DNA from: Thermoplasmata archaeon | GTDB taxonomy: Archaea > Thermoplasmatota > Thermoplasmata > GCA-020350865 | Assembly (NCBI GenBank): GCA_020348445.1 | Contig: CP070751.1 | Coordinates: 4,743,778 to 4,807,777, forward strand | Length of the DNA: 64,000 bases | Direction: 5' to 3' | Part shown: in pieces, positions 1-46,032 of the stretch | Layout: the number at the start of each line of letters is the position of its first letter | Position numbering within the stretch: position 1 is the stretch's first letter | Made by a program: the position numbers and the translations under genes | The notes under the pieces: model-generated | Seen by the model: only the letters and a program-made list of their open reading frames with translations | Told to the model about the DNA's origin: nothing | Databases searched by the model: none

Positions 1-33
1 GAATCAGCCGCTCTACCGCTGAGCTACAGTGGC
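1..33 (-). tRNA. tRNA gene, 5' part only (continues beyond the left window edge); isotype not determinable
   Basis: The minus strand from 33 reads GCCACUG UA GCUC AGCGGUA GAGC G GCUGA UUC. This gives the acceptor 5' strand, U8-A9, a 4-bp D stem around a GG-containing D loop, and the 5' strand of the anticodon stem. The window ends at anticodon position 34 (C). Confidence 0.6.
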
Positions 34-34
34 A

Positions 35-191
35 AATGATGTCCATACGACGTAGCTTAGCTGGCTAGTGGAGACCGAAGGTTTCCACGAAAGACCGCTG
101 AGCTACAGTGGCATATGTATTTGATGTGAGTAGCTTAGCCGGTGCAGAGGGGCTCGCAATGGCACCTCCAAACCACTAAGCTACAGTGGCA
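35..191 (-). repeat. Two tRNA-sized (78-79 nt) units that repeat the first ~18 nt of the adjacent tRNA and then fold into a long hairpin instead of a cloverleaf
   Basis: The minus-strand unit starts are at 112 and 190 (the real tRNA starts at 33). All three begin UGCCACUGUAGCU(C/U)AG(C/U)GG. In unit 2, tRNA nt 7-18 (plus 95-106) pair with plus 52-64 around an inner stem GUGGA/UCCAC. In unit 3, plus 176-184 pairs with 130-138. There is no T arm and no 3' acceptor strand (no GCCACTG on the plus strand nearby). Confidence 0.6.
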
Positions 192-426
192 TCGAGCTTA
201 CAGCATGAAATACCACTGAGCTTAAAAGGGTTTTGTGAAAAATATGAGGTGTTTTTGGCTTTTATAATCCAATTCAATCGATACCCTGATTTTGCCGACG
301 TGATAAGAGATGAGCATATTAAAGAGATTAGAAAAAATCTGATTTTCATCAATATAACTGCTCTCATCTTTCTTACCATCTTTATTAGGATTAACCACGC
401 CCTTAATAAAAAGTTGTATCGGTAAT

Positions 427-1014
427 TTATCCTTCCTTTTCAATATGCTCTTTGATCAGAACATTTACAGAATTTACTAAAGTGTTGAGGCTATCCACAG
501 CTCTCGTCAATTCTTCCCTTGTCCTTGTTTGCTCTTTATTCATCGAAATCAATGTTTCTGAAACGATCCCGTATTTTTCATCTAATTTGTTGAAATGCTC
601 ATCAGTGTGAACGGTAAGGTTATCAACCTTTTGCCCTACTTCCTCCACTTTTTGACCTACACAATCAATCTTTTGACCTAACCGATTGAAGTGCTTTCCG
701 GCTGTGGCATATCCCTGGAACATTTCATATGCTAAATCACCGGTCTTCACTTCAAATCTCTTGAATTCCCCCTTTGGCTTGCTGAAATTTCGCCTTACAG
801 ACTCCACATAAACCATGTCGTTCTTCAGTCTGATTTTTTCAGAGAATTCATCTATGGCTTTTCTTTCGCCTTCGCACACTATTCTGACCTCCCCATCTGT
901 GAGGTTCTCGATATATCCGACCAATTTTAACTTTTGAGCAGTTCTCATGATAAATGCTCTATAGCCGGCTTCCTGCACATCGCCTCTTATCTTTAAAATG
1001 GCCCTTGTTTTCAT
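427..1014 (-). CDS. Acylphosphatase-like domain protein with a C-terminal coiled-coil/repeat region
   Basis: The N-terminal ~90 aa fit the acylphosphatase-like signature (ILKIRGDVQEAGYRAFIMRTAQKLKLVGYIENLTDGEVRIVCEG). The C-terminal half has reiterated GQKID/VGQKVEEVGQKVDNL segments. Confidence 0.5.
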   Translation of the reverse strand: MKTRAILKIRGDVQEAGYRAFIMRTAQKLKLVGYIENLTDGEVRIVCEGERKAIDEFSEKIRLKNDMVYVESVRRNFSKPKGEFKRFEVKTGDLAYEMFQGYATAGKHFNRLGQKIDCVGQKVEEVGQKVDNLTVHTDEHFNKLDEKYGIVSETLISMNKEQTRTREELTRAVDSLNTLVNSVNVLIKEHIEKEG

Positions 1015-1116
1015 AATCTCCAGAAGCGCCCTATTGCTTTTTAGAATTAATAAGTTTCGGTCTTAAAAGATATATTACGTCAGCGTTTATCTCAAGATAA
1101 ATGTTCAACATACAGC

Positions 1117-1704
1117 TCAATTTCTTTTGGCTCGTACATACTTTTTAACCATTATATCATAAGCTTCTTGACAAACCCCGCCCTCTCTTTTTAGGTCTAA
1201 CAAGACCTGTGGAGTTGAAGCGACCCACAATCCCTTTATTTTTTGCTTTTTATAGAGAACATGGGGATCGTAAACGAGTAATCTGAAATTACCTTTGCCA
1301 ACTAATCCTTTTTTCACAATTTTATCTTTCCACTTAGGAATATCGTCTTTCACAACATATATATCTGCACTTGACGGGAATAAATAATGATTGAGTAGGT
1401 TTTCAGCAAAGTATGTTGTTAGAGCATAATCCATATCAATTTTTTTTAAGAACTTGGATGGTGAATCCATAAAAAAATCATAATGCAATGGCTTTCTTGA
1501 TATGGATTCCCAGATATCCAATAGACTTTCTATTTTAACAACTTTGGTTTCTTTAACGAGTCTTCTTTTCTGTAGAGTTTGCAGATATTCGATCGTCCAG
1601 CTAGTGGAGGTTTCCGAGAGTTTTGCAACTCGGTATTTAGTGAGGGTACCATTAGGTTCATTGAGAAGAACGCGGAGGATCCGTTCCCTTTTTTCACCAT
1701 GCAT
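1117..1704 (-). CDS. Putative winged-helix DNA-binding protein, function unknown
   Basis: There is an N-terminal wHTH-like segment (RERILRVLLNEPNGTLTKYRVAKLSETSTSWTIEYLQTLQKRRLV). The rest is unrecognised. Confidence 0.4.
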   Translation of the reverse strand: MHGEKRERILRVLLNEPNGTLTKYRVAKLSETSTSWTIEYLQTLQKRRLVKETKVVKIESLLDIWESISRKPLHYDFFMDSPSKFLKKIDMDYALTTYFAENLLNHYLFPSSADIYVVKDDIPKWKDKIVKKGLVGKGNFRLLVYDPHVLYKKQKIKGLWVASTPQVLLDLKREGGVCQEAYDIMVKKYVRAKRN

Positions 1705-1848
1705 AATATGTCGGAAAGGTTATACGTTTATAAAGGTTTCCGATATATCGGAGTTAAGAGTTATTTAAATAGGTTTCCGATATATTTGTATTAATTATAA
1801 GACTCAATTATATAAACGCTTGTATCAATACATCTAAAATTAGTTTCA

Positions 1849-2730
1849 TTATTCTTTTTCCTCGGGAGTTATCTTATCTTCAGGTTCTCCTTTCGTCTTG
1901 GTTGGCTCTTTTGAACCTAACTTTCTTGAGGCCAAGATTATGGCCACCAGAGCTACAATTATGCCTAAGATTCCCGATCCCATGGCTGTATAGACAAGAT
2001 TATTGTCCGGATCCTTCTCAATTATTGTCTCTTTCTCGGTGCTCTCAAGGATTTCTATTTCTTTTGTAAGATTGTTTATCTCTAACCAAAGCTCTGCATT
2101 TTCAGATTCAAGTTGAAGCATCGAATTGTTTAATTCATTTATCCTTTTATCGAGTTGGTTTATTTGCTGTTTAAGGTCATTGATTTGAAATTGAAGTTCT
2201 TCAAGATTAGAAGCAGTTGGGGTATAGTTTATGATTATATCGTTGAAATAGAAATTATTTGTCCCACTTTCCGAAATGGAAAGGTGTATATTATCTAACG
2301 AACAATTTAAACTCAAGAATATATCGTCATTAATTTCAGCGCCCCAATATATATCATACTCGTACAATTCGATTTCTAGACTATAATTTGACCTTCCTCC
2401 CCCAAAGCTCGATTTTACTGTGATGTTATTGACAAATATGGGATATGTAAATTGAAGCCAAAAATGATTGGAAAATTCACTGCTATCTTCATAAATAATA
2501 CCTGAACTTAAATCACCGTCAAATATTTTTGTTGCATTAGTGGGGTCACCATTTAAATAGACTCCTGAGGTAAAAGGAGTATTAATAGCATCTGATTCTA
2601 CAATTTCACCTATATCGAAAGTCTCAGCATTTGTTCCAGGTAAAACCAAACAGCTGAAAATGCCGATCATCGATAATATTGCACAAAGTCTTCCTCTGTT
2701 TTTCATGATATCCCTCAATTTGTATATCAC
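1849..2730 (-). CDS. Secreted, C-terminally anchored coiled-coil surface protein
   Basis: It has an N-terminal hydrophobic signal (LCAILSMIGIFSCLVLPG) and several N-x-S/T sequons. It has a long heptad region (LEELQFQINDLKQQINQLDKRINELNNSMLQLESENAELWLEINNLTKEIEILE). It ends in a C-terminal TM helix (GILGIIVALVAIILA) plus a Lys/Glu-rich tail. Confidence 0.45.
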   Translation of the reverse strand: MIYKLRDIMKNRGRLCAILSMIGIFSCLVLPGTNAETFDIGEIVESDAINTPFTSGVYLNGDPTNATKIFDGDLSSGIIYEDSSEFSNHFWLQFTYPIFVNNITVKSSFGGGRSNYSLEIELYEYDIYWGAEINDDIFLSLNCSLDNIHLSISESGTNNFYFNDIIINYTPTASNLEELQFQINDLKQQINQLDKRINELNNSMLQLESENAELWLEINNLTKEIEILESTEKETIIEKDPDNNLVYTAMGSGILGIIVALVAIILASRKLGSKEPTKTKGEPEDKITPEEKE

Positions 2731-2983
2731 AATTGTTGTTAATATAATTTATTAGAAGAGGATTTAGGCGGTAGATAAAAAGAATAGGGCAAGTGATATT
2801 CCATACATTATTTATAGAAGAGGTTTTGATGTTCCGTAACGATGATTAAATAGTACTATTTCCGAAGGGCGCGCCCGTTTAATAGTAAAAGCTGGGGATT
2901 ACATTTAAATTGGGCCAAAAAACATTGCTCGGAGCAAATGTTTATATATGGGATTAATTTAATATTGTTATGAGGTTGGATAA

Positions 2984-4336
2984 ATGAATAGCGATAGGAA
3001 GAAGTTAGTAATTCGTATATTCTCGATTTTGTTGATAATTTTACTCTCGATTAAAGGATTGTTTTTAATCCCTTCTATGATAGACAACGCAACTTCTGAA
3101 GGATCGACAGAAATTAGTGGTTTCATATCATCGGATGCTGTATGGGCTTTGGAAAATAGTCCTTATATAATAATTGAAAACACTTTAGTTGAAGAAAATG
3201 TCAATTTAACTATCGAACCTGGTGTAATCATTAAATTCAACTCAGATAAATATATACGTATTGATGGAACATTATATGCAGTAGGAACTGAATCAAATAT
3301 AATTACTTTTACTTCAAATTCAAAATCACCTGAAAGAGGTGATTGGGGTAAAATACAAATCGAAAAAACCAGTAAAGATTCTATTATAAAATATTGCAGA
3401 GTTGAATATTCATCAGAGGGAATTGATTGTAGCGCATTAATGATTTCTATAACAGATAGCACCTTTTATACCAATGGAAATGGGATTGATTTGCATGATT
3501 GCGACTCAATTATAATGAATAATGAATTTATCAACAATGAACTTGGAGTTAACGAGGGGAAAAATATAATTAACAATGTATTTATTAAGAATGGTCGAAG
3601 CATTCTCTATGGAGAAAATGTTACTAATAATATTGTTATAAATAATGATAGAGGAATTATAAATTCAAATCTTATACAAAATAACTATATCCTTAATAAT
3701 AATGGGGGTGTCGATATTGGGAGGAAAATTAAAGTCTATAATAACTATATTGTTAATAATAGTGAATATGGTATCAACATTTTAGGTTCGGCAAATGAAA
3801 ATATCACGAATAATATTATTACGAATAATGAAATTGGAATAGAAATGGAACAGGGGGCAACTTCTCAAATAATGAATAACAAAATTGCTAATAATAAAAT
3901 CGGAATTAATATTTACTTTAGTTCTTCTTCTAATGAAGATACAAATTTTACAATAAGAAATAATAATATCCAAGATAATATTGAGTATAATTTCCGAAAT
4001 AGTGTAGAAAAAAAATATTATATGAATTATAACTGGTGGGGAACGACAGATACATCCTTAATAGATATATCTATTTATGATTATCAAGATGATTTTGAAT
4101 TAGGTAAAGTTGAATATTTACCAATCTTAGAATCACCAGTGGATGTTATACTTCAAAATATGCTCCCAATTTCAGAATTAGATCTAAGTCAATATGATTT
4201 AGATGAACCCAAAGAGGATTCGGATGATGACTTCATAGATTTTCTTGGATCAGAATTCTTCATTGCAATTAGCGTAATTGTCATTGTCTTAGGATTAAGT
4301 ATATTCTTTTATAGAAGAAAAAGAAGAGATGTCTAG
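2984..4336 (+). CDS. Parallel beta-helix (PbH1/NosD-like) repeat surface protein with a C-terminal TM anchor
   Basis: It has an N-terminal signal/anchor (LVIRIFSILLIILLSIKGLFLIP) and many short Asn-rich turns of the form NNxIxNNxxGI. It has a C-terminal TM helix (FFIAISVIVIVLGLSIFFY) followed by RRKRR. A GAGGT lies ~8 nt upstream of the ATG. Confidence 0.55.
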   Translation: MNSDRKKLVIRIFSILLIILLSIKGLFLIPSMIDNATSEGSTEISGFISSDAVWALENSPYIIIENTLVEENVNLTIEPGVIIKFNSDKYIRIDGTLYAVGTESNIITFTSNSKSPERGDWGKIQIEKTSKDSIIKYCRVEYSSEGIDCSALMISITDSTFYTNGNGIDLHDCDSIIMNNEFINNELGVNEGKNIINNVFIKNGRSILYGENVTNNIVINNDRGIINSNLIQNNYILNNNGGVDIGRKIKVYNNYIVNNSEYGINILGSANENITNNIITNNEIGIEMEQGATSQIMNNKIANNKIGINIYFSSSSNEDTNFTIRNNNIQDNIEYNFRNSVEKKYYMNYNWWGTTDTSLIDISIYDYQDDFELGKVEYLPILESPVDVILQNMLPISELDLSQYDLDEPKEDSDDDFIDFLGSEFFIAISVIVIVLGLSIFFYRRKRRDV

Positions 4337-4352
4337 GGGACAACCCTATCCA

Positions 4353-5606
4353 TCAGCATCTATAATGCCCTTTTTCGTACAGCTTTTTCGAATGCTTCAA
4401 GGCCTCGATTACAGGCATGCTCTGACCTGCAAGATAAGTTATGCATGCCCCCCCGCCCGTGCTGATATGGTTGACCTTACCTTCCAAATTCAGGTTCCTT
4501 GCGGCAGCTACTGTCTCACCACCGCCAATTACTGAAAAACCCTTGGATTCTGCTATGGCATTGAAGATAATGGTCGTACCCACCGCAAATTCCTCTATCT
4601 CAAATACACCTGCAGGACCGTTTAATATGATGTTCTTGGCTTCCAAGATTTGATTTCTGTAGTTAACAGCTGTATCCAACCCTATGTCAAATATCCTCGA
4701 TTCTGCTGGTAGGTCCCCTAACGATAACCCTTTTCTTTCTCCGTTGTCATTTAGTACTAAGTCAGCGGGCACGTCTATTTTACTGCTGTGCTCACTATCC
4801 AGGGCTTTTGCCTGCTCCGTGAGCTCCTCGTATTTACCTACCTCCTTTTCGAGGAACGAGATGTTCGGCTCTCCAAGATCATGCCCCCTGGCAAGTAAGA
4901 AGATATTGGCAACAACACCTGTTGTGAGTACTCGATCAACTACATCATTCTCCAACATGTTTCTCATTACCTCTATGGTGTCGAAAACCTTTATCCCGCC
5001 AAGAACGGCGATACTTGGCCGCTCGTTACTGTGCATAGCCTTCTGAAGCATTGAAATCTCCCTTTCCATGACCTTTCCTGCAAGGCATGGCAGAACCTCG
5101 GTAAATCCAGTAAGCGAAGGTTGAGCCCTGTGCGCAGCAGCAAAGGCATCGTTTATAAAATAATCTCCAAGCTCAGCAAGATGGGAAACCATGTGACTTT
5201 CTGCCTGGGATGCAAAATCCTTGCCCTTTAACAAATGCTCCTCTGCATAGAACCTCACGTTCTCCAAAAGGATCCTTTCGCCCTTTTTCATGTTTTGAAC
5301 CTTGGTGAGGGCCTTGCTTCCAAAGAAATCGTCGATATAAGTGACCTTCTTACCGAGCCTTTTGGTGATTTGCTTTGCATGCTTTTTCAAGTTAGTAAAA
5401 TCCCTTTTGCCTGGTCTGCTCTGATGGGCAAGCAAAACGACCTTGGACTCCGAGAGTTCCTTTATGGTCTTTATATGGTTCCGAATCCTGGTATCGTCTA
5501 AAATTTCACCTGTCAAGGGATTTATAGGGGAATTGATATCCACTCTGACTAAAACGGTCTTTCCCTTCAAATCGAAATCGTCGATTGTCAGTATTTCCTT
5601 GGGCAT
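4353..5606 (-). CDS. pgk: Phosphoglycerate kinase
   Basis: 417 aa. The N-terminus (DDFDLKGKTVLVRVDINSPI...DDTRI) and the C-terminal STGGGA motif (HISTGGGACITYLAG) are typical of PGK. The length fits archaeal PGK. Confidence 0.9.
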   Translation of the reverse strand: MPKEILTIDDFDLKGKTVLVRVDINSPINPLTGEILDDTRIRNHIKTIKELSESKVVLLAHQSRPGKRDFTNLKKHAKQITKRLGKKVTYIDDFFGSKALTKVQNMKKGERILLENVRFYAEEHLLKGKDFASQAESHMVSHLAELGDYFINDAFAAAHRAQPSLTGFTEVLPCLAGKVMEREISMLQKAMHSNERPSIAVLGGIKVFDTIEVMRNMLENDVVDRVLTTGVVANIFLLARGHDLGEPNISFLEKEVGKYEELTEQAKALDSEHSSKIDVPADLVLNDNGERKGLSLGDLPAESRIFDIGLDTAVNYRNQILEAKNIILNGPAGVFEIEEFAVGTTIIFNAIAESKGFSVIGGGETVAAARNLNLEGKVNHISTGGGACITYLAGQSMPVIEALKHSKKLYEKGHYRC

Positions 5607-5724
5607 GTTTTCGGTGGATTATACATTAGTGGTATATAAAAATGTTTAGGAGTTTATAAAGGTCCTAGCCTTTGACTGGCATATATCAGCAACATTTAAA
5701 AGCATCTATTATCATAGACATCCA

Positions 5725-6513
5725 ATGTCCACTTTAATTGATCTGAAAGGCAGTCCCAATCCCAAAATAATTGGCAGGGCTATATACAGCTATGAGGTTT
5801 TAGGCTCCACGAACATCCAGGCAAAGGATTTGGCAGAATCAGAAGCTGAGGATGGTACCGTTGTCATTGCGAAAATTCAGAGTGAGGGTAAGGCGAGGCG
5901 AAATCGGAATTGGATATCGCCGGAAGGTGGTTTATGGCTTTCAGTGATACTAAGGCCGAATATCCCTCCTCAAAAGGCCACCTTGGTAACACTTATGGCG
6001 GCAAATGCTGTTGATGAAACTCTTTCTGAATATGGTCTTAAGGCCAAAATAAAATGGCCCAATGATGTTCTTATAGACGGCAAGAAGGTATGCGGGATTC
6101 TCACTGAGGCAAAGACTAAAGAAAATGAGATAGAATATCTTGTTCTGGGAATTGGAATCAATGCGAATTTCGATTTAAGTGAATTACCTGAGGATATCAG
6201 AGGGGCTTCCACTACGATAAAAAATGAATTAAAAAGGGATATCTCCCAGGATGAATTGCTTCAAAGGTTATTAGGACATGTGAATAAGTATTATGAAGGG
6301 CTCCTTGCTTCTGATTTTCAAAAAATTGTAAAAACTTGGAAGGAAAAAAGTGATACACTGGGAAGGCATGTGAAAATCACAACTCAGATGGAGAGTATCC
6401 AGGGCATAGCTCAGGATATAGACGATACAGGGGCTCTGATATTAAAGAGGGATGACGGTGATATACAGAAATTATTTGCAGGGGATTGTGTATATTTACG
6501 GAATGTTGAATAG
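5725..6513 (+). CDS. birA: Biotin--protein ligase (class I, no N-terminal HTH)
   Basis: It has the BPL signature GKARRNRNWISPEGGLWLSVILRP (GRGRxGRxWxSPxG type) and KWPNDVLIDGKKVCGILTE. Confidence 0.75.
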   Translation: MSTLIDLKGSPNPKIIGRAIYSYEVLGSTNIQAKDLAESEAEDGTVVIAKIQSEGKARRNRNWISPEGGLWLSVILRPNIPPQKATLVTLMAANAVDETLSEYGLKAKIKWPNDVLIDGKKVCGILTEAKTKENEIEYLVLGIGINANFDLSELPEDIRGASTTIKNELKRDISQDELLQRLLGHVNKYYEGLLASDFQKIVKTWKEKSDTLGRHVKITTQMESIQGIAQDIDDTGALILKRDDGDIQKLFAGDCVYLRNVE

Positions 6514-6522
6514 AAAAAGAAG

Positions 6523-7644
6523 TTGGGATATGACATGGATGTAGTAGAGTTAACAAAAAAGCTCGTTGAAATCCAGAGTGTGACAGGTAATGAAACCGAA
6601 ATTGGAGAGTTCATTACTTCAGAATTAGATGATCCCAATGTAGAAATGCAAAAGGTTGCAGGTTTTGGTCCCAATGTTATTGCTAAACATATAACAAAGC
6701 CCGAAGACCCTATCATCATCCTGAACTGCCACATGGACACAGTGGAGGTCATGCAAGGTTGGGAATCTGATCCCTTCACTCCAAAAATCGAAGGTAATAA
6801 ATTGTACGGTCTTGGAGCATGCGATATGAAGGCCGGAGTTGCAATTGCCATTGATGTCTTTAAGAAAGCACAAGAAATGGACAAGAATATTGTATTTACT
6901 GCAGTCTCGGACGAGGAAGGAAACAGCAAGGGCTCTTATGTCCTTCTACAAAAAATGAAACAGGAAGAACTCAAGGGAGATAACTCAAATTTGCTTTGCC
7001 TGATACCCGAGGATACCGAGGAACACGTGAAGCTTGGAGCTAGAGGAAGATACGTAATCGATATAGATGTTTTTGGCTGCTCTGCCCACGGAGCCACTCC
7101 TGAATGCGGTACAAATGCAATAGTCAAGTCCACCAAGATTGTAGATGGGCTTAATGATCTACCCTTAGCTGAGCATCCGATCATGGGAAAGGGCTCATTT
7201 TGTATCTTAAAAATAGAGGGTGGGGGAGATTCCCTATCAGTTCCTGATAGGTGTACCATTAGAGTGGACAGGCATACGGTACCTGGAGAGGATAAAAGCA
7301 AAATAATAGAAGACTTTGATAATCTACTTAAAAAACTGAATTTAAATTGTGAATACAAACTATCCTTCATAAAGAGGGAAACTCCATTCTTAGAGCCTTA
7401 TATCCTTGACAAAGAAAATCCCTGGGCAGTTAAATTTCTTTCAGCATATAGGGAGTATTGTGAAAAAGAGGCCCCAATTGCCTATGGAAGATCTGTGGGG
7501 GATTTCAATGCCTTTGGATGCCTCATGCCCACCATCGTTTTTGGCCCTATGGGGGAGAATGTCCACGGTTCAAATGAATGTGTCTTTATAGATTCAATAA
7601 AAAGGTGCAGGGATCTTTATCTTAAGTTCTTAGAGGGATTATAA
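6523..7644 (+). CDS. M20 family metallopeptidase (ArgE/DapE-type deacylase)
   Basis: It has the M20 metal-binding motifs LNCHMDTV and GACDMKAG, SDEEGNS, and a dimerisation-domain-sized insert. Confidence 0.7.
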   Translation: MGYDMDVVELTKKLVEIQSVTGNETEIGEFITSELDDPNVEMQKVAGFGPNVIAKHITKPEDPIIILNCHMDTVEVMQGWESDPFTPKIEGNKLYGLGACDMKAGVAIAIDVFKKAQEMDKNIVFTAVSDEEGNSKGSYVLLQKMKQEELKGDNSNLLCLIPEDTEEHVKLGARGRYVIDIDVFGCSAHGATPECGTNAIVKSTKIVDGLNDLPLAEHPIMGKGSFCILKIEGGGDSLSVPDRCTIRVDRHTVPGEDKSKIIEDFDNLLKKLNLNCEYKLSFIKRETPFLEPYILDKENPWAVKFLSAYREYCEKEAPIAYGRSVGDFNAFGCLMPTIVFGPMGENVHGSNECVFIDSIKRCRDLYLKFLEGL

Positions 7645-7655
7645 ATTTGAAATAA

Positions 7656-8693
7656 TTATGTAGTGGCTTGACTACTTGAGCACTCTTTTTTTCCGTTTGC
7701 AAAGATGTCATCATAGTACGGTTTTATTGCAGATAGGAATTCCTTGACCGAGGTAAAGGAGTTAGTTGCATAGTATTGGTACCACCCGCAGCGTCTTTCG
7801 CAGATTCTCATCTGGTCCCTGTAACGTGCCGCTTCCTCGGATTTGAGGTATTCCATAAGAGAGGTCTTTGTGAGATCGCATGTCTTCTGCCCAAGGATTC
7901 GGCATGGATAGAATATCACGCCATCGCAGTCTATTATGATGGAGGACGTTGAGCAGCCGTGGGGCATGTTGATTCTGTCCAGGTAACCATATGGAGTTGT
8001 AATCGTGTTTTTATAGGTTTTCTTCAGCCTGCTGATTTCCTTTCTAAAATCATCTGTGTTTGGGTAGAAATTCTTTGTTCTGTCCAGATGAACTGCAGGC
8101 ATAATCACGGTCCTGGCATTGGCCTTGTAAACCTTCCTAACCTTATCCTCAAGTGCACCCAATTCCTCGTGGGTTACCACGGTTTGTACACACACTGGTG
8201 CATATACCTGGAATTCCTCAAGACGCTCCAGCATATCCAAATTTTTATGGCCCTCGTCTATACTTATGTGCAGATAATCGATATATTTGCCGTACTCCTC
8301 CATGGGTGCCTTATCCAGAAGTAGCCCATTGGTTGTGAAAAACAGATAAAAGGGTTTTGTTGCCGCATATCTGAGTATTTCGCCGAGATCATCTCTTCTG
8401 AGGGGTTCGCCTCCCTCCAGGCTCAGTAAGGTGATACTGGAATTTCCCAGATTGTCCAGGACGTTAAACACTTCCTCTGTTGGAAGAACTGGTGTTTTTT
8501 CCATCCAGACATTGCAGAATTTACATCTCATATTGCATTTGTTGGTTATCTTGTACGAAGCGTAGAAGGGGTAAATAGCCTCTTTTCTGAAATAATTGCT
8601 TGCGATATGACCCGCAATCTTCGAGTACTTTGTTATTGGAAGAAGCCTCATATACATCCCACAAAAGCCAACTTTGGGCCTTTTATTGCCCAT
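7656..8693 (-). CDS. Radical SAM protein with a Cys-rich (SPASM-like) C-terminal region
   Basis: It has the CNMRCKFCNVW CxxxCxxC motif and the GGEPL glycine motif. It has further C-terminal cysteines (HGCSTS...IDCDG...YPCR...CERRCGWY). Confidence 0.7.
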   Translation of the reverse strand: MGNKRPKVGFCGMYMRLLPITKYSKIAGHIASNYFRKEAIYPFYASYKITNKCNMRCKFCNVWMEKTPVLPTEEVFNVLDNLGNSSITLLSLEGGEPLRRDDLGEILRYAATKPFYLFFTTNGLLLDKAPMEEYGKYIDYLHISIDEGHKNLDMLERLEEFQVYAPVCVQTVVTHEELGALEDKVRKVYKANARTVIMPAVHLDRTKNFYPNTDDFRKEISRLKKTYKNTITTPYGYLDRINMPHGCSTSSIIIDCDGVIFYPCRILGQKTCDLTKTSLMEYLKSEEAARYRDQMRICERRCGWYQYYATNSFTSVKEFLSAIKPYYDDIFANGKKECSSSQATT

Positions 8694-9645: not shown

Positions 9646-12600
9646 CTACTTCTCCCAACTTACCTGGTTTGCGCCGCCTTCTGTTTCCTCCTCATCCACA
9701 GTTAACGCCTCCACGACCTCTGCCTCCACCACCTCCACATCCGCGTATGCTGTTTGGGGGGAGCTCTCAACCTGAAAATCAACTGTTTCTTCCTTGCCCT
9801 TTCTTCTTAACAACAGGACCATAATTAGAATTATCACGATAATGATGATGAACAGTAATAGATAGACCAGGTTATTCTCCAGCATCTCAAATGCTCCACC
9901 CTCCTGGGGGCTATCATCCTCATCTACGCCATTACCATCCCCATCACCATCCCCATCACCATCGCCATCGCCATCGATGTCTTGCCACTTTGTTGGGTCA
10001 TCTGGGAAGGCATCAGGATTTGTTCCATTGGGATTGTCTCCATAGCCATCTCCATCTCTGTCTGACCATTGAGTGGGATCGTTTGGGAATGCATCAGAGT
10101 TGTCTCCAATCCCGTCATCATCAGAATCCTGCCACTCTGTAGGATCCAATGGAAATGCGTCTTCGTCATCCAAGTAAGTGTCGTTGTCATCATCAGAATC
10201 CATGGAATCAGGGATGAAATCCCCATCAGTGTCAATGGGTACTGAGCTGGAGTTGTACGGATCAGTTCCTTCGGATTCCTCTATTGTATCCTCATACCCG
10301 TCATTGTCATCGTCCAAATCCGCATTATCTCCTATCCCATCACCATCTGAATCTTCCCATTCTGTTGGGTCTTCTGGGAAGGTATCATTCTCATCAGGGA
10401 CACCATCGTCGTCGTAATCGTCATCTATGACTGGTTCATACACGTTCACCCTCAACAATGTGCTAGAAGCGTTGTTGCTGAGATTGTCCCTTGCACCGTA
10501 AATTATTGTACCTGTGTTCAATGGCAGGGTAAATGGCGAGGTATATACATTATAAGTGGAGCCTCCGTCGATGCTGTACCATATAAAATCTACGCCGACA
10601 CCCGTGGTGTCATTGGCAATAAAAGTAACTGGTGTTGTGGTATTTACCCAATATCGTTCGTCAGGAGGAGGAGTAACATTCCCTATGAAAATGGTGGTAT
10701 TTGGCGGTGTTATATCTATATTGACAGTTATAGAAAAGACAGATTCATTGTTGCCGAGATAGTCCTCTGCTCCGTAGGTGATGTTGTGCAGTCCCTCTAT
10801 ATAGCCCGTTAACATGAAATATGAATATTCAAAATATTCGCCGTCGATTGTGTACCAAATAAATGAAACACCGCTTAATTCATCTTCTGATGTCAGAGTG
10901 AATGGTGTACTTTGAGTCACATTCCAGCAATCAGAGTCATTTAATCGATATTTGGGCTCCCCATAAGAAAGTGATGAGTTTGGTGGGGTATTATCCAACT
11001 GAACAAGGATACTGTCATATGTTTCATTGTGATTCAGATTGTCTATTGCGCCCCAGGTTATATTGTACTCGCCATCTACGTAGTTCGATAAATTGAATAC
11101 CTGACCCTCGAAATAGGTTCCATTTATCGTGTACCAAATCGTGTCAATCCCTGAATATGACTCCAGAGAGGCGAGGGTGAATTCAGTTAGAAATGTTACA
11201 TTCCAGTTATGCTCATTAAGTCTGCGATATTTTGGAGAACCAACAAAGATCTCAGTTTGAGGGGAGGTATCATCTAAAACGACCACCTTTTCATTTCCTG
11301 TTTCGTTGTTACCAATCATATCAACGCTGCCCCAGGTTATTGTGTGAATTCCTTCATTATAACCGCTGAGATTGAAAGATATCCCTTCGAAATATTTTCC
11401 GTCGATGGTATACCAAGTGTAGTTCACACTAGATCGATTATCGAAAGCTAGCAAATCAAATTGTGTGAAAGAGGTTACATTAAAATTATCGCTTTGATTC
11501 AATCGATACTTTAAACCAAAGAGTGTTATGTTCGTAGTGGGCGCCTGTGTATCGACATACACATAGGTCGTGTTGCCTGTTTTGTTGTTTCCCACACGAT
11601 CTCTTGCGCCAAAAGTTATGATATGGATACCATCTGAATAACCATCCAAGTTGAAATCCGAGGCCTCAAAATATATGCCATCGATGGTGTACCAATTTGT
11701 ATCGATCCCTGATTGGGTATCATCAGAATTAATGTCAAAGAGTGTGGAAGTTGAAACATTCCAATGATCTTGAGAATCCAGGTGATACTTTGGCAAACCT
11801 ATATCCAAAGATACAGAAGGAGGAGTCGTGTCGAGAATTACTGTGATAGTTATTTCTGTTTCATTATGTCCGAGATTATCCTGGCTCCCATATACTATCG
11901 TATGAGAACCGTCATCATATCCTGAAAGGTTGAAGCTAGAGCCCTCGAAATATTCTCCATCAATGATGTACCAACTGAAAGCAACACCCGAATAACCGTC
12001 ACTGGCATTGAGTATGAATGTGGTTGTATCTGAGACGATCCACGGATCAAAGTCATGTTCTCGGTATTTTGGATCACCCACCTCCATTTTGGTATTCGGT
12101 GCTAGTTTATCGAGAAAGATGACTATTGAATTGCCTGTTTCGTTTGTTCCGAGATTATCGATACTGCCCCAGGTAATTGCATATGAACCTTCATTTAATC
12201 CGAAGTCAGATAGTGTGAAACTTTCCCCCTCGTAATATTTTCCATTGATTGTGAACCAGGTTATCATTACACTTGAATTATGGTCTGGATGATCCACTGG
12301 TGTAAGGTTAAATTGTGTATAGGCGGTAACGTTACATCCATCGAATCCGCCAGTGGGGTATTTATCGCTTCCAAGGGTTAAAACCGTTTGGGGCATTGAA
12401 TCATCCAGCCAGACTGTGATGGTATTTGACTCGTTATTACCCAGGTTGTCACAGCTGCCCCAGGATATGGTACGTGCACCTTCATCATAACCAGAGAGAT
12501 TGAATACCAGACCCACATACAAATCAGAATCGATTTTATACCATGTAAAAGCCAAGCTTGAGTTGTGGATTGGTAAATCCTGCGGTGTTAAAGTAAAGGG

Positions 12601-15600
12601 GGTCTCGGAGGTCACATTGGCTTCATCTTCGTATTCCACAGGATGATGCGGAGAGCCTATGGTCAATTCAGTATAGGGTACTGAATCGTCGAGCCAGACT
12701 TTGATAAGATTCCCTGTTTCATTGTTATCGACATTATCTTTGCTGCCCCAGGTTATGTCATGCTCTCCCTCAGAATAGCCTGATAAGTTGAAACTTGTAC
12801 CTTCATAGTAATCCAAATCTATAGTGTACCATGTGACTGCCACACTTGCGTTATGGGAGGGATTGTCTTTTGCTGTTAGGAAAAAAGTAGTATTTGACGT
12901 GACATTGCATCCTTCCTGTGGGGATAACGGATATTTTGGGAGAGCGATTGTAAGTGTTGTCTCAGGCGTGCTGTCATCCACCCATATGGTGATAGTGCTG
13001 GCCGAGCCGTTGTTACCGAGGTTGTCCTCACTGCCCCAGGTTATTGTGTGGGCACCTTCACCATAACCCAACATTGTAAATTGCGAGTCTTCATAGTAAT
13101 CAGTACCTATGAAATACCAATGAAATGCAATGCCTGATCCATGAGAGGGATTGTCTAGTCCAATGAGAGTAAGCTGTGTATTCGAGGTCACGTTGCATTC
13201 GTCATTTGGCGAATCAGGATGTTTTGGTTCGTCAATAGAAAGTATGGTGGAAGGTCCACTTTCATCTATCCAGACTGTTATATTTATGGTTCCGTTGTTG
13301 CCGCTAAAATCCTCACTTCCATATGAAATGTTATGCGGTCCTTCACTGTAACCTGAGAGTGTGAAGGGCGTTCCATCAAATTCAAAATAAACTCCATCGA
13401 TGATGTACCATGTGAAATTCACGCCCGAGTATTTGTCCCATGCCGATAGGTTAAAGGAAGAGGTTTGTGTTATGTTCCAGTCGTCACCAACATTGGCCCG
13501 ATATTTCGGATCTTCTATGGTAAGGGTTGTAATTGGTGGAGTGCCGTCCCACACCGTGATATTGCAGGTATCGTTGTCCCAGTTACCCCATGCATCGCTC
13601 ACGTTCAATGTAACTGTAAAAACACCTATGGTCGAGTATGAATGCACCACACTCGAATCATAAGGACCCATCTTGTTGGAATAGTTACCGTCGCCAAAAC
13701 TCCAGTTGTACCATGCGATGTATCCCGAGTCATCCCATGAACCTGAACCATCTATCACTATGGGTTGATCTGTTCCTGTTGAGTTGTCTGGACCTGCGTC
13801 CGCTATGGGAGTTACATTATCCTTCCCAAATATCTGCATCGTTGGATCACCTAAAAGGTTCCACTCATAAACGACCCATCTGTAGGTGTTGTGTGTCAAG
13901 GCATCCGAGGCGAACTCCACCTTTGTTTGTTGGAGGGTTTTACCGATTCTAATCTCGTAGTTGTTAAAAAGCTGATTGTAGAACTCGTTATCAAGTTCAC
14001 CGCTGTATTTGGAAACGTCGAAGCTGATGAACCATCCAAACCTGCTGTTTAAAATGCAGGCCACAAAACCGCCGTCCGGATTGATTATATACTCTTCTGC
14101 CATACTATCCCTATCGCCCACATAGCCACCATCGCTTCTTCTTCCATCAAATGAACCACTGTAGCATGCTATTGAAAGGTGTATGGGATAGTAAGTGTTG
14201 ACAACATCATCAGCATCTGTATCAGAATAAAATGTACCTTCCTTGATCTCATAGCTTTGGACGGAGCCATGACCGCCATGGTTGACGAAAAGGGTGTTGT
14301 TGGCGATTTCTTGTTCCCAAATTGCAACTGATATCTCGTGCCCGTCTTTCTCGTACAATCGGGTTATATTGTAAACAGAAGGGATGTAACTCTCGACACC
14401 GTCGACTGAAACTCCTCCATCTCCGTTTTTTATATAATCAAGATAATAGGGACCACTTGAATCGGTCTCCCCGTGTAATGTGACATGCCTGGGTCTTGGA
14501 TTTGCCTCGAAGTATGTGACCTTATCAACGAAGGTCTGAGCCTCGGTAACAGAACCTACAGGAGCCCTCCCCACGAAAACCTCGGCCAAAATGTCCGATT
14601 CCTCCCCAGCATCCCCACCTCCTCCATTGGCAGAGTCCTTCTCACCGTATATGGAATCTCCATCATTGTCCCAGTTTCCGTCCAAACCTCCAAAATATAG
14701 GTCAGTGGGGATGTCATCATCCTCTTCTGGACCTCCTGTAGCGAAAACGTAACCATAACAGCCCCTGTGAGGCATTATTTCGTCATCTCCTCCCAGCATT
14801 ACAAAACTCGTGCTCCAATTGATGTATGCATCCTTGATGAAATTACGGATTTCTTCCTGGGTATCGTTACCGTTATAATCGGGATCGGCTGTGATGGCCT
14901 CTTTGGTAACCACTATAGTTGGTATCCCGGAGCTGTTCTTATTATTTGCCATTGTTTGAAAAGTGGAGGCCAGTGCATTGCTTGTAATTATCACATAGTT
15001 ATAAGTTTCAGATGAATTTGTCAGGGAAAGCGGTGTGATACCCCCCGAGGATTCCTGTTCACTGGAAGTTTCATAGGAATCCAGCATTAAGGGATTATCC
15101 ACAAATCCCTTTACTAATTCCTTGTCTTGGTCTAAACCACGGTACAAAGGAGATATGTCCCTAATATCAAGGGTGGTTACCGTGACATCCATGTTCGTGA
15201 AGTAAAGTACTTTTCCAGAAGAAGGTAAATAATGCATTGGGTACAAGTTTAAAAATAGGATTTTATAACCCCTTAACGTTTGCACAGAAACAAATGAAAA
15301 TTCAATCTCTGGATATCTATTTTCTGAGTCATATATTGACCAATCTAATGTCTCAGTCGACAGACTTGTATCCTCTGAACCCATGATCATGGATTCCTCG
15401 CCTGGCTTGATATAATATGTTCCATCAATGACTACCTCGTCTTTTCCAGTTACTTTGATATTTCCCAGGACATTGCCTTGTGGAAGGAGAACATTTATAC
15501 TCTTTACAGGAATTATTGGCATGCCCGGTTTTATCTCGTTGCGTAGAGGCTCCATCCGTGGAATATCATATTCCCCTATTTTTTCCATCTCAGGTTCTGA

Positions 15601-15885
15601 AAAACTGTAACTTATTGAAAATGTATTTTCCTTGACAACATCGATTATGTCTGGGTCCACTGATTTCAAATCCTGATAAAACGAAACCTCGGTGGTGCTT
15701 AAATCTGAGTCTGCATCCGACACTTTTATGTCAGCAGAAATTGGTGCGCCCACGCTATCTTTCACATCCAAGTGATCTTCTGGGATTTCTTTTCCCAAAT
15801 CCCCTAAAACACCTGGGATGCCCATTGTAAACAATAAGAGCAAAACCAGAAAGAGTGCGGTTTTTGTGGATTTTTGTTTTGCCAT
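9646..15885 (-). CDS. Giant surface-anchored C25 (gingipain-like) cysteine peptidase: signal, propeptide/C25 domain, PKD, 11 WYTIDG-type repeats, thrombospondin-type-3-like Ca repeats, TM, cytoplasmic tail
   Basis: The signal peptide is ALFLVLLLLFTMGIPGVLG. The C25 catalytic dyad context is FVNHGGHGS (about 14262-14290) and HLSIACYSGSFDG (about 14158-14187). The PKD domain is DAGPDN...WSFGDGN...VTLNVSD. There are 11 repeats of ~93 aa with the motif (F/Y)TWYTIDGxYFEG...GxHTITWGSxDNLGNNET. The Asp-rich DxDxDGxxDxxD repeats and a (DG)n run lie at ~9930-10440. The TM helix is LLLFIIIIVIILIMVLLL. Confidence 0.8.
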   Translation of the reverse strand: MAKQKSTKTALFLVLLLLFTMGIPGVLGDLGKEIPEDHLDVKDSVGAPISADIKVSDADSDLSTTEVSFYQDLKSVDPDIIDVVKENTFSISYSFSEPEMEKIGEYDIPRMEPLRNEIKPGMPIIPVKSINVLLPQGNVLGNIKVTGKDEVVIDGTYYIKPGEESMIMGSEDTSLSTETLDWSIYDSENRYPEIEFSFVSVQTLRGYKILFLNLYPMHYLPSSGKVLYFTNMDVTVTTLDIRDISPLYRGLDQDKELVKGFVDNPLMLDSYETSSEQESSGGITPLSLTNSSETYNYVIITSNALASTFQTMANNKNSSGIPTIVVTKEAITADPDYNGNDTQEEIRNFIKDAYINWSTSFVMLGGDDEIMPHRGCYGYVFATGGPEEDDDIPTDLYFGGLDGNWDNDGDSIYGEKDSANGGGGDAGEESDILAEVFVGRAPVGSVTEAQTFVDKVTYFEANPRPRHVTLHGETDSSGPYYLDYIKNGDGGVSVDGVESYIPSVYNITRLYEKDGHEISVAIWEQEIANNTLFVNHGGHGSVQSYEIKEGTFYSDTDADDVVNTYYPIHLSIACYSGSFDGRRSDGGYVGDRDSMAEEYIINPDGGFVACILNSRFGWFISFDVSKYSGELDNEFYNQLFNNYEIRIGKTLQQTKVEFASDALTHNTYRWVVYEWNLLGDPTMQIFGKDNVTPIADAGPDNSTGTDQPIVIDGSGSWDDSGYIAWYNWSFGDGNYSNKMGPYDSSVVHSYSTIGVFTVTLNVSDAWGNWDNDTCNITVWDGTPPITTLTIEDPKYRANVGDDWNITQTSSFNLSAWDKYSGVNFTWYIIDGVYFEFDGTPFTLSGYSEGPHNISYGSEDFSGNNGTINITVWIDESGPSTILSIDEPKHPDSPNDECNVTSNTQLTLIGLDNPSHGSGIAFHWYFIGTDYYEDSQFTMLGYGEGAHTITWGSEDNLGNNGSASTITIWVDDSTPETTLTIALPKYPLSPQEGCNVTSNTTFFLTAKDNPSHNASVAVTWYTIDLDYYEGTSFNLSGYSEGEHDITWGSKDNVDNNETGNLIKVWLDDSVPYTELTIGSPHHPVEYEDEANVTSETPFTLTPQDLPIHNSSLAFTWYKIDSDLYVGLVFNLSGYDEGARTISWGSCDNLGNNESNTITVWLDDSMPQTVLTLGSDKYPTGGFDGCNVTAYTQFNLTPVDHPDHNSSVMITWFTINGKYYEGESFTLSDFGLNEGSYAITWGSIDNLGTNETGNSIVIFLDKLAPNTKMEVGDPKYREHDFDPWIVSDTTTFILNASDGYSGVAFSWYIIDGEYFEGSSFNLSGYDDGSHTIVYGSQDNLGHNETEITITVILDTTPPSVSLDIGLPKYHLDSQDHWNVSTSTLFDINSDDTQSGIDTNWYTIDGIYFEASDFNLDGYSDGIHIITFGARDRVGNNKTGNTTYVYVDTQAPTTNITLFGLKYRLNQSDNFNVTSFTQFDLLAFDNRSSVNYTWYTIDGKYFEGISFNLSGYNEGIHTITWGSVDMIGNNETGNEKVVVLDDTSPQTEIFVGSPKYRRLNEHNWNVTFLTEFTLASLESYSGIDTIWYTINGTYFEGQVFNLSNYVDGEYNITWGAIDNLNHNETYDSILVQLDNTPPNSSLSYGEPKYRLNDSDCWNVTQSTPFTLTSEDELSGVSFIWYTIDGEYFEYSYFMLTGYIEGLHNITYGAEDYLGNNESVFSITVNIDITPPNTTIFIGNVTPPPDERYWVNTTTPVTFIANDTTGVGVDFIWYSIDGGSTYNVYTSPFTLPLNTGTIIYGARDNLSNNASSTLLRVNVYEPVIDDDYDDDGVPDENDTFPEDPTEWEDSDGDGIGDNADLDDDNDGYEDTIEESEGTDPYNSSSVPIDTDGDFIPDSMDSDDDNDTYLDDEDAFPLDPTEWQDSDDDGIGDNSDAFPNDPTQWSDRDGDGYGDNPNGTNPDAFPDDPTKWQDIDGDGDGDGDGDGDGNGVDEDDSPQEGGAFEMLENNLVYLLLFIIIIVIILIMVLLLRRKGKEETVDFQVESSPQTAYADVEVVEAEVVEALTVDEEETEGGANQVSWEK

Positions 15886-45942: not shown

Positions 45943-46032
45943 TGGACCGGAGGGGATTTGAACCCCTGGCCTCCACCAATTTGGCCATCAAAGGATGCCA
46001 AGGTGGCGATCTTCCAACTGATCTACCGGCCC
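45943..46032 (-). tRNA. tRNA-Ala (anticodon GGC) with a 17-nt intron
   Basis: The sequence is GGGCCGG UA GAUC AGUUGGAA GAUC G CCACC UU GGC A [UCCUUUGAUGGCCAAAU] U GGUGG AGGCC AGGGG UUCAAAU CCCCU CCGGUCC A. The G3-U70 pair, the Ala identity element, is present. The intron is ~45979-45995. Confidence 0.85.

Follow-up and report, generated by a model that had tools for sequence, protein, structure and literature searches.

Organization of the repeated tRNA 5' end

On the minus strand of the window (the whole 64-kb stretch of DNA that was analysed, from an uncultured Thermoplasmata archaeon), the beginning of a tRNA gene is written three times, and the question raised by this locus is what the two additional copies are and why they stand in front of the gene. 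The string GCCACTGTAGCTYAGYGG occurs at 33-16, 112-95 and 190-173, giving periods of 79 and 78 nt. This arrangement had been pointed out in the initial annotation, and a pattern search confirmed it: 0.07 matches are expected by chance, and none of 100 dinucleotide-preserving shuffles contained three or more. A repeat search of the window returned a 24-nt direct-repeat family (15-38, 94-117 and 172-195) and a second family, D2, with the sequence GTAGCTTAGC(T/C)GG at 52-64 and 130-142, which corresponds to a complementary arm described below. Tandem Repeats Finder did not report the array because the sequences between the copies are too different. Pattern matches to the 19-nt copy of the tRNA 5' end (nt 1-19; hereafter E1) number only three in the whole window.

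The repeats lie on the 5' side of a tRNA-Thr(CGU) gene, between a putative promoter and the gene. As had been stated, only the copy at 33 goes on as a tRNA. It is the functional gene, of which nt 1-33 (33..1, minus strand) are present before the window edge cuts it (Rfam tRNA, 20.9 bits, 3'-truncated). Its identity as tRNA-Thr(CGU) comes from relatives: in L109, a syntenic locus (related loci are given here by L numbers), an intact tRNA-Thr(cgt) gene agrees with the 33 nt exactly, and a near-match is present in other relatives. Synteny through the upstream acylphosphatase gene was dropped, since the relatives of that gene, including close ones (85-91% identity), have no tRNA downstream; the adjacency of the two genes is specific to the window.

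The two additional copies, at 112 and 190, head units of 79 and 78 nt, respectively, in each of which E1 is followed by a core hairpin of 28 nt, an arm of 14 nt and an AU-rich tail of 17-18 nt. In unit 2, E1 (94..112) copies tRNA nt 1-19 exactly, as found by both repeat and pattern search, and the core (66..93) is an inner hairpin of the form GUGGA..ACC-UUC-GGU..UCCAC, with homologous cores in L227, L237 and L243 unit 2. The arm (52..65), identified from family D2, the minimum free energy (MFE) structure and its pair table, is the complement of tRNA nt 7-18 in the unit's own E1 copy, and the 18-nt tail GTCGTATGGACATCATTT (34..51) is the immediate 5' leader of the tRNA. Similarly, in unit 3, E1 (172..190; same searches) is a copy of nt 1-19 with T13 and T16; the core (144..171) is an inner hairpin of the form UGGAGG.GC....GC.CCUCUG, with homologous cores in L088, L243 unit 1 and L248; the arm (130..143), supported by repeats, fold and alignment, is the complement of nt 7-19 in its own E1 copy; and the tail TCACATCAAATACATAT (113..129) is identical at 17/17 positions in L088 and near-identical in L243 and L248. 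All of these features are on the minus strand.

Both units fold into the hairpins that had been proposed, with energies of -27.8 and -28.2 kcal/mol and z-scores of -3.8 and -3.2; the inner stem GUGGA/UCCAC is present in unit 2, and ACAUCA is found in both tails. The strand bias of the hairpins is inconsistent: the antisense hairpin is the stronger in window unit 2, L227 and L088, and the sense hairpin in window unit 3 and L237. A weaker fourth copy had been suggested at 209-225, but this stretch falls in the 30-nt spacer (191..220, minus strand) that leads from a TATA-like element to the first E1, and it overlaps that promoter-like motif. The spacer can be aligned in ten related loci with or without units. 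Since a diverged form of the 209-225 stretch is present in L244, L247, L109 and L136, which carry no units, and since it folds no better than shuffled sequence (z +0.36), it is not a fourth unit.

The element upstream of the spacer, CACAAAACCCTTTTAAG (221..237, minus strand), resembles a BRE/TATA pair, and its match to the archaeal promoter consensus suggests that it is the promoter. Its motif, CAAAA(y)(c)yTTTTAA/T, is kept in ten related loci with zero, one or two units, always 29-32 nt upstream of the first E1. Since this distance stays constant whatever the number of units, the units are predicted to lie inside the transcribed leader, where they would be co-transcribed with the tRNA and removed by RNase P. 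In the window, the stretch from the promoter to the tRNA contains no run of five or more T residues, and a T-run directly follows the tRNA 3' end in L244, L227 and L109. In L227, the tail of the unit resembles the leader upstream of the first E1 (ATAGCCATCAAAT versus ATAGCCAATCACAT); thus, the tail looks like copied leader. Upstream of the promoter, the window contains approximately 4.1 kb, partly of 30% GC, that are extra in comparison with syntenic relatives.

Comparison with known RNA and repeat classes

ARAGORN found no tRNA at 34-190, and the one tRNA match from Rfam at E<=10 was to the real gene at 1-33, truncated by the window edge, which leaves the units without a family. The sole other Rfam match near the units, mir-127 at 156-249, overlaps unit 3 and is at chance level (13.8 bits against a gathering threshold of 60; E=7.9). 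At the gathering threshold, a scan of the window returned only two tRNAs, near 45.7-46.0 kb. These results rule out that the units are full tRNAs or tRNA pseudogenes; the initial annotation had already set them apart from ordinary tRNA pseudogenes. The results also bore out its statement that units 2 and 3 have neither a T arm nor a 3' acceptor strand, which excludes permuted tRNAs. Tandem tRNA duplicates and pseudogenes likewise stand head-to-tail at tRNA-like spacing, and in L225 and L226 the units retain remnants of the intron, the T arm or the 3' acceptor; in units 2 and 3, in contrast, only the first 19 nt are recognizable, and the rest is a conserved hairpin unlike the gene body.

The units diverge from the tRNA near position 19/20. 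This break point had been located correctly in the earlier description but is not arbitrary, as it is the D-loop intron site of relatives. In 49 distinct Thermoplasmata tRNA-Thr genes, position 19/20 is occupied by a canonical hBHBh' intron, a motif of two 3-nt bulges separated by a 4-bp helix, in which 91.9% of alignment cells are paired and covariation is strong. Like these archaeal D-loop introns, the units leave the tRNA at the 5' splice site and, after E1, have a hairpin followed by CCGNCTAAGC, which resembles the intron 3' end plus the 3' strand of the D stem. On the other hand, the unit hairpins have no 3-nt bulges and tRNA positions 26-76 do not come next, so that an intron-containing tRNA was rejected. 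A covariance model of the D-loop-intron region gave 23.8 bits for the L088 unit, 18.3 for unit 3, 19.0 for unit 2 (E1 alone) and 31.6 for the real gene; these scores are little informative on an intron relic because E1 alone explains most of them, and the units gain little or nothing beyond it. The real gene downstream of the units has no D-loop intron, unlike the relatives that carry one.

Other classes were rejected on specific grounds. A CRISPR array does not fit, given that the supposed spacers are conserved, contain a common motif (family D2) and stand in the same order in the window and L243. For a plus-strand C/D box RNA (UGAUGU...CUGA), the CUGA is changed to CUAA in unit 3 and L088, and what looks like a D box is the tRNA D-loop read in antisense. 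An H/ACA RNA would need a large internal pocket for pseudouridylation, which the hairpin lacks, and no snoRNA or sRNA in Rfam, no k-turn and no C/D or H/ACA box pattern was found in the units. Finally, nhmmer profiles of both cores matched only the known units in the window and approximately 2 Mb of related loci, which argues against a MITE-like dispersed repeat.

Occurrence and conservation in related loci

Conservation in related genomes was found for both unit types. Five other related loci carry units of type 2, type 3 or both, one or two per array, beside the PGK-linked tRNA gene. L088 and L227 have one unit, and the window and L243 have two; L248, where the array meets masked sequence, and L237, whose contig ends just after the start of a second E1, have at least one each. 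L109, L136, L244-246 and L247, representing four related lineages, have none, although the tRNA and the promoter motif are kept. The lineages that differ in unit number are about equally distant (PGK 76-81% amino-acid identity). The order unit 3-unit 2-tRNA is common to the window and L243, and L237 starts with a type 2 unit.

After E1, identity within a type is 74-90%; for example, window unit 3 and L088 agree at 53/59 positions, and window unit 2 and L227 at 48/60. At the four-fold synonymous sites of PGK, identity is only 29-45%, indicating saturation. The conservation is uneven along the units. In the unit 3 core, 94% of paired and 75% of unpaired positions are identical, and all four inner changes between the window and L088 are unpaired. 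The single-stranded tail is 93% conserved in unit 3 and only 53% in unit 2, and the arms only 71-79%. Compensatory changes in the stems were not found: the aligned units contain no double compensatory change in any stem, and the changes that occur make mismatches or G-U pairs.

The E1 copies vary together with the gene. Unit 2 and the tRNA of the window both have C13, and in L088 and L243 the tRNA-adjacent unit has T13, like the tRNA. The E1 of unit 3, with T13 and T16, equals the 5' 19 nt of the tRNA-Thr(GGU) genes in L011, L058 and L063. The E1 pattern was used to fetch archaeal tRNA-Thr loci, and among these a second E1 was present in L088 alone; a 37-nt string of unit 2 had no match in the genome contig collection, and the pattern E1..AAGCTAC had none in the metagenome contig collection. 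In a survey of the 316 ARAGORN tRNAs in all fetched DNA, matches 106-152 nt upstream were obtained besides the loci fetched with the tandem E1 pattern; those in Dehalococcoidia are tandem tRNA genes, and the inspection covered the matches other than L037, L074 and L089. Short 5'-fragment repeats were also seen upstream of bacterial tRNA genes (L128, L129, L131, L231 and L240).

Origin and possible role of the units

Based on the results presented above, we give a probability of about one half to the reading that the units are old partial duplicates of the gene 5' end which recombine through E1, are co-transcribed with the tRNA and are discarded with the leader. On this reading, they form a small lineage-specific family of approximately 78-nt repeats, which a group of uncultured Thermoplasmata carries in the 5' leader of its PGK-linked tRNA-Thr(CGU) gene. 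Among the roles listed in the initial annotation, duplication scars fit best and a new RNA class less well, given the remnants in L225 and L226; the conservation would nevertheless be compatible with RNase P decoys, processing punctuation or new small RNAs. The unit of L225 contains a hairpin that is 16/17 identical to one in the intron of its own tRNA, a score reached by 0/200 shuffles, and also keeps a remnant of the 3' acceptor, CTCCAGTGCT; unit B of L226 keeps a T-arm remnant. Such pieces of the gene body make these units recognizable as gene-copy stubs and point away from a new RNA class. The 3' end of the PGK-linked tRNA-Thr gene is also partly duplicated, with short inserts, in L227 and L247, and partial tRNA genes as direct repeats beside tRNA genes are a known product of recombination (PMC3293823, PMC9897764). 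Neither the present tRNA body nor the long canonical intron is significantly similar to the cores of units 2 and 3, so that a gene-copy origin of these cores is taken only from the analogous units of L225 and L226.

A possible course of events is as follows. Partial duplication of the gene 5' end would have produced a stub of E1, 28-nt core, 14-nt arm and copied AU-rich leader. The perfect direct repeats of 19-24 nt formed by E1 would then recombine, by which units may be added, removed or reordered and the E1 copies kept like the real gene. Transcription from a single promoter upstream of the first E1 would pass through the units and the tRNA, stop at the oligo-T and yield one precursor. Each unit would fold on itself into a hairpin of approximately 55 nt, locking nt 7-19 of its decoy 5' end, and RNase P would cut at G1 of the last, complete copy, with a leader of approximately 165 nt being discarded. 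Once released, a decoy 5' end or an anti-D-arm would act as a competitor while the real tRNA folds; hence, the hairpins would either stay intact or a unit would be lost cleanly through E1 x E1 recombination. When the whole L243 precursor is folded to its MFE structure, the 3' acceptor strand of the tRNA pairs with the E1 of unit 2, and as modelled for this precursor the competition of a decoy for the acceptor strand is thermodynamically real. Two findings run counter to this account: the conservation is above that expected of a pure scar, and a need to keep the hairpin inert does not predict a single-stranded unit 3 tail that is 93% conserved. Moreover, the units of L226 do not pair with their own E1, so that sequestration is not universal.

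It is possible, though doubtful, that the units have a function, either in cis as modules of the pre-tRNA leader or as small RNAs that the leader releases; the decoy 5' ends, for instance, may gate RNase P maturation by alternative acceptor-stem pairing, or the hairpins may stabilize or time the processing of the precursor. Consistent with this are the identity kept within types despite saturated synonymous sites, the conserved unit 3 tail, a geometry of 19+28+14+17/18 nt common to both types in spite of their different cores, the shared order in the window and L243, the mostly unpaired changes of the unit 3 core, and the competition for the acceptor strand in the folded precursor. However, four related lineages with the same promoter and tRNA do without units, no stem contains a double compensatory change, and the stronger hairpin strand differs from unit to unit. 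In addition, the arms and the unit 2 tail are poorly kept; the more distant L226 (PGK 53%) has unrelated units in which E1 is not sequestered; and the units match neither an Rfam family nor a k-turn or box pattern. The stricter version, which would make the units a conserved and hitherto undescribed class of "decoy 5'-end" hairpin RNAs embedded in the leader, controlling maturation of tRNA-Thr(CGU) through acceptor or D-arm pairing or persisting as stable small RNAs, is unlikely.

Two further explanations concern split tRNAs and site-specific integration. Split and tri-split tRNA genes are known from Nanoarchaeum equitans and Caldivirga maquilingensis, where there is no intact gene and a complementary 3' partner that forms a bulge-helix-bulge (BHB) motif is needed. 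Like the units, they have a free-standing 5' piece followed by non-tRNA sequence, and such a piece could in principle serve several isoacceptors. In the present case, E1 would be joined to body 20-76 by BHB cis- or trans-splicing to give tRNA-Thr isoacceptors, and both the end of E1 at the D-loop intron position of relatives and the identity of the unit 3 E1 with tRNA-Thr(GGU) genes would agree. Nevertheless, it is highly improbable that the units are split-tRNA 5' pieces or alternative 5' exons: an intact tRNA-Thr(CGU) gene with its own E1 directly follows the units in L243, L227 and L088 (its first 33 nt do so in the window), the hairpins contain no BHB with 3-nt bulges around a 4-bp helix, and the sequence before the tRNA body is, by inspection, unable to pair with E1 into one. 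Furthermore, the complement of the unit trailers gave only chance-level matches within the 64-kb window, that is, no partner, and related genomes have the same tRNA gene without units. The claim that the units are not known split, permuted or intron-containing tRNAs therefore held up. The other explanation, which is improbable, takes the units as scars left by an element that integrated site-specifically at the tRNA gene 5' end, or takes the insert of approximately 59 nt with its E1 copy as a miniature cassette that an integrase of such an element moved in trans. A plasmid or virus whose attP had a 5' segment like that of tRNA-Thr, possibly with a hairpin like that of a D-loop intron, would have recombined within E1, and the body of the element would then have been lost, leaving repeats of the attL/attR type.

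Direct repeats of a tRNA end around inserted DNA are indeed the signature of archaeal integration (PMC3293823, PMC9897764), and, as at SSV/pNOB8-type sites, a fragment of the tRNA end (the 24-nt family) is here directly repeated beside the complete gene. In Caldiarchaeum, a 5' fragment of tRNA-Thr(GGU) (nt 1-27) lies 1.8 kb upstream of the gene, and attP was the source of an intron (PMC3293823); there, as in the units, the 5' end of a tRNA-Thr is involved and the boundary is an intron position, and the E1 end coincides exactly with the D-loop intron site of relatives. The patchy distribution combined with high similarity across distant hosts would also fit integration, as would the 3'-end duplications in L227 and L247 at the same gene, the 5'-fragment repeats upstream of bacterial tRNA genes and the extra DNA upstream of the window promoter. 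Known cases, on the other hand, involve kb-sized elements (1.8 kb; 9-23 kb) with an integrase and repeats of 27-44 nt (PMC3293823; tRNA gene fragments of Thermococcaceae, PMC9897764), whereas the units have only 59-60 nt between the repeats, with no integrase, recombinase remnant or other ORF, and form a tandem array of two types in a predicted transcribed leader, with inserts conserved across genus-level divergence. For each type, four genomes agree in both junction and length, a constancy that random deletion of elements would not give. Up to 9.7 kb upstream, none of the nine largest ORFs has a Pfam integrase domain; the cores had no match in plasmid and phage collections and, in viral contigs, at most chance 16-mer matches; no dispersed copies turned up in 2 Mb of related loci; and a second E1 was confined to L088 among the fetched archaeal tRNA-Thr loci.

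The usual interpretation of partial tRNA genes is that a kb-sized mobile element left them as its footprint, and they also confuse tRNA annotation. The present locus departs from this in that such fragments form a short tandem array inside the predicted leader of a working tRNA gene, with hairpins that use the copied 5' end, and that the units are kept at 74-90% identity where neutral sites are randomized. Inert units would illustrate how a tRNA gene copes with decoys derived from itself and gets rid of them, as well as the relation between recombination at the D-loop position and archaeal intron sites. Functional units would add a new kind of cis element to tRNA maturation, and a true decoy hairpin would mean that an archaeal tRNA gene has a cis-regulatory layer built from copies of the tRNA itself. 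In either case, small-RNA sequencing of archaea related to Methanomassiliicoccales can be aimed directly at these units.

Leader units of the tRNA-Thr(CGU) gene

Three minus-strand copies of GCCACTGTAGCTYAGYGG lie in the window, at 33, 112 and 190; shuffled sequence gives an expectation of 0.07 matches, and three or more occurred in 0 of 100 shuffles. A repeat search of the window returned two families: a 24-nt direct repeat (15-38, 94-117, 172-195) and GTAGCTTAGC(T/C)GG, located at 52-64 and 130-142. The copy running from 33 to 1 is a tRNA cut short where the window ends (Rfam tRNA, truncated, 20.9 bits), and its 33 nt match the start of the intact tRNA-Thr(CGU) of a syntenic relative, L109, at 100%. 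The other two copies head two minus-strand units in the leader of this gene, unit 2 (112-34, 79 nt) and unit 3 (190-113, 78 nt). Each independently forms a long hairpin, a downstream arm pairing with tRNA nt 7-19 to enclose an inner stem-loop (-27.8 and -28.2 kcal/mol; z-scores of -3.8 and -3.2, respectively). Both types have the same geometry: a copy of the first 19 nt of the tRNA (E1), a 28-nt core, a 14-nt arm and a 17/18-nt tail. ARAGORN called no tRNA in the units, and their sole Rfam match at E<=10 was a chance-level mir-127 overlapping unit 3. The repeat, shuffle, folding, ARAGORN and Rfam results bear out the repeats and hairpin units of the initial annotation, except for its "fourth echo" at 209-225, which is the TATA-like element/first-E1 spacer, has a diverged form in unit-less relatives and folds no better than shuffles. 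The unit array is real and non-random.

From the proteins encoded nearby, the window is assigned to an uncultured lineage of Thermoplasmatota related to Methanomassiliicoccales. Its genes for PGK, biotin ligase, M20 peptidase and radical SAM (4353-8693) are syntenic with the related loci L109/L135, in which a short intergenic region and then tRNA-Thr(CGU) follow PGK; the PGK-tRNA-Thr linkage is also found in L136, L227, L237, L243, L244-247, L248 and the more distant L226. Compared with syntenic relatives, the window has about 4.1 kb more DNA (~260-4350; 30% GC at 2-4 kb) between the tRNA promoter and PGK. Encoded there are an acylphosphatase-domain protein and a beta-helix protein; of two further ORFs with no clear domain, one has weak coiled-coil-type Pfam matches only. 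Because of this extra DNA, and because close homologues of the acylphosphatase gene occur in other genomic contexts, the region upstream of the promoter is regarded as a rearrangement breakpoint. A very large minus-strand ORF (2079 aa) occupies 9646-15885.

Promoter motif and distribution of units among relatives

The motif CAAAA(y)(c)yTTTTAA/T is conserved and fits the archaeal BRE/TATA consensus; judged by its sequence, it is probably the promoter. It lies 29-32 nt upstream of the first E1 in 10/10 related loci, whether this E1 is the start of a unit (window, L088, L243, L248, L227, L237) or the tRNA itself (L109, L136, L244, L247). No T-run of five or more occurs between motif and tRNA in the window, and oligo-T runs directly follow the tRNA in L244, L227 and L109. 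The simplest reading is a single transcript of promoter, units, tRNA and terminator. The first E1 would therefore sit at the original start of the gene, and a block of core, arm, tail and one more E1 would most simply have entered at D-loop position 19/20.

Among relatives at 76-81% PGK identity, four lineages (L109, L136, L244-246 and L247) have no unit, L088 and L227 have one, and the window and L243 have two; at least one is present in L248 (masked sequence beyond) and in L237, where the array opens with a unit 2-type unit and another E1 starts just before the contig end. Homologues of unit 3 are found in L088 (bin396), L243 (unit 1) and L248, and those of unit 2 in L227, L237 and L243 (unit 2), the order unit 3, unit 2, tRNA being common to the window and L243. 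The E1 variant C13 is common to unit 2 and the tRNA in the window; T13 occurs in L088 and in both unit 2 and the tRNA of L243. Profile searches with both cores, covering the window and ~2 Mb of related loci, detected no further copies.

Break point and origin of the repeats

In 49 distinct tRNA-Thr sequences of Methanomassiliicoccales and other Thermoplasmata, a canonical hBHBh' D-loop intron comes after E1, at site ~20/21 (L008-L127, e.g. L009:3413-3468 and L044:5926-5982), with the pattern GCTC AGCG GTN [hairpin] CGCT ANA GAGC. In an alignment of 40 of these sequences, 91.9% of cells are paired and covariation exceeds all 500 shuffles. The carriers are mostly CGU genes; L011, L058 and L063 are GGU, and ARAGORN did not call these three. 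The units diverge from the tRNA at this very position, and their arm (CCGNCTAAGC) resembles the intron 3' end plus the D-stem 3' strand; however, a covariance model of the intron region gives little or no score on the units beyond E1, so that homology is no more than a possibility. A long intron (~125 to ~380 nt) at the canonical 37/38 site is carried by tRNA-Thr(CGU) of the window's closest relatives (L088:1875-2016, L136:~6424-6546, L227:~305-435 and L225, minus strand), with a conserved 5' segment CCCTTTGGGAAAGCGTTAAyGGAAAC, a conserved 3' end GGGAGAAA and several hairpins that vary; L109, L243, L244 and L247 are without it.

Other loci retain more of the tRNA gene. The unit hairpin of L225 is identical at 16/17 positions to a hairpin in the 380-nt intron of its own tRNA, a score reached in 0/200 shuffles, and the unit also contains CTCCAGTGCT, left over from the 3' acceptor end. 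Over their first ~58 nt the two L226 units share ~90% identity; unit B encloses a T-arm remnant, and the tail of unit A is a copy of the leader upstream of it. These sequences mark the L225 and L226 units as tandem gene copies with internal deletions. The L227 unit tail is similar to the leader that precedes the first E1, which makes leader plus E1 the repeated module. L227 (~450-680) and L247 (~2900-3060) have a duplicated gene 3' end too, with short inserts: the last ~20 nt (T-arm and 3' acceptor strand) recur ~125-150 nt downstream, in L227 with ~55 nt of identical flank, mirroring the 5' stutter at the opposite end.

Bacterial tRNA genes with short 5'-fragment repeats upstream were found in L128, L129, L131, L231 and L240. 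They look like tRNA-Met or tRNA-Thr, from Peribacteria, Neomarinimicrobiota and unassigned metagenome contigs; the copies are 13-20 nt long and lie 72-91 nt upstream, often with a hairpin between. The L129 and L131 inserts have GGGCAGGCAG in common, and the L231 unit tail is complementary to the tRNA 3' trailer. In L130, an intact tRNA-Met copy of Peribacteria is immediately followed by a tandem copy with an apparent ~50-nt D-loop insertion (minus strand, ~7349 onward). Across all fetched DNA (316 tRNAs), confirmed fragment stutter occurred only in loci fetched by the tandem E1 pattern; seven other matches lay 106-152 nt upstream, those in Dehalococcoidia being tandem tRNA genes and three others belonging to L037, L074 and L089. 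Fragment stutter is rare, yet recurrent at tRNA-Thr(CGU).

The window also holds an intron-containing tRNA-Ala(GGC) (45943-46032, minus strand, leader to ~46070; Rfam 57.2 bits), which ARAGORN overlooks at default settings. At 24 nt upstream of G1, the leader carries CTACCGGCCC, which is tRNA nt 1-10 exactly reverse-complemented; two leaders in the window thus have a segment complementary to the 5' end of their own tRNA.

Conservation and nature of the units

At four-fold synonymous sites, PGK identity between these related genomes is only 29-45%, and the sites are hence saturated. Post-E1 unit sequences are far more alike, with 53/59 identities between unit 3 and L088 and 48/60 between unit 2 and L227. 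In the unit 3 and unit 2 types, respectively, conservation is 94% and 85% at paired core positions, 75% and 81% at unpaired core positions, 79% and 71% in the arm, and 93% and 53% in the tail. This conservation across saturated divergence, together with a hairpin design common to both types, is moderately surprising. A functional leader RNA is a minority reading, at perhaps one chance in four. No double compensatory change occurs in any stem pair of the two types, the changes there give G-U pairs or mismatches, and no hairpin strand preference is consistent across units. Template switching in quasi-palindromes, a well-established source of mutations, could also hold the two arms complementary without RNA-level selection.

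Most similar among known features is the partial tRNA gene left as a direct repeat of the complete gene after mobile-element integration (PMC3293823; PMC9897764); in Caldiarchaeum, a tRNA-Thr(GGU) 5' fragment has a proposed link to intron gain (PMC3293823). In known cases, however, the repeats flank kb-sized elements with recombinase genes, whereas the inserts here are 59-60 nt long with no ORF, and the units are tandem, lie within a leader, and comprise two conserved types with identical junctions in several genomes. Integration scars or cassettes are unlikely, less so than split or alternative exons, which are very improbable; a small share of the probability goes to none of the readings. 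When tested, the units did not qualify as a tRNA, a BHB-intron, split or permuted tRNA, a CRISPR array, a dispersed miniature repeat or a guide sRNA.

The units are best classed as self-derived partial tRNA gene repeats, and we give a probability of about 0.5 to their being inert stubs in the leader that recombination maintains and reshuffles. The E1 direct repeats would recombine, so that units are added, deleted, reordered and homogenised; one precursor would be made, and RNase P would cut at the last E1. The hairpin may keep the decoy nt 7-19 and the anti-D-arm from disturbing folding of the real tRNA, and such shielding would explain both the conserved stems and clean whole-unit loss as the alternative. 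When the entire L243 precursor is folded (MFE), the tRNA 3' acceptor strand pairs with the E1 of unit 2, which makes decoy competition plausible; such competition could be a cost or a function alike.
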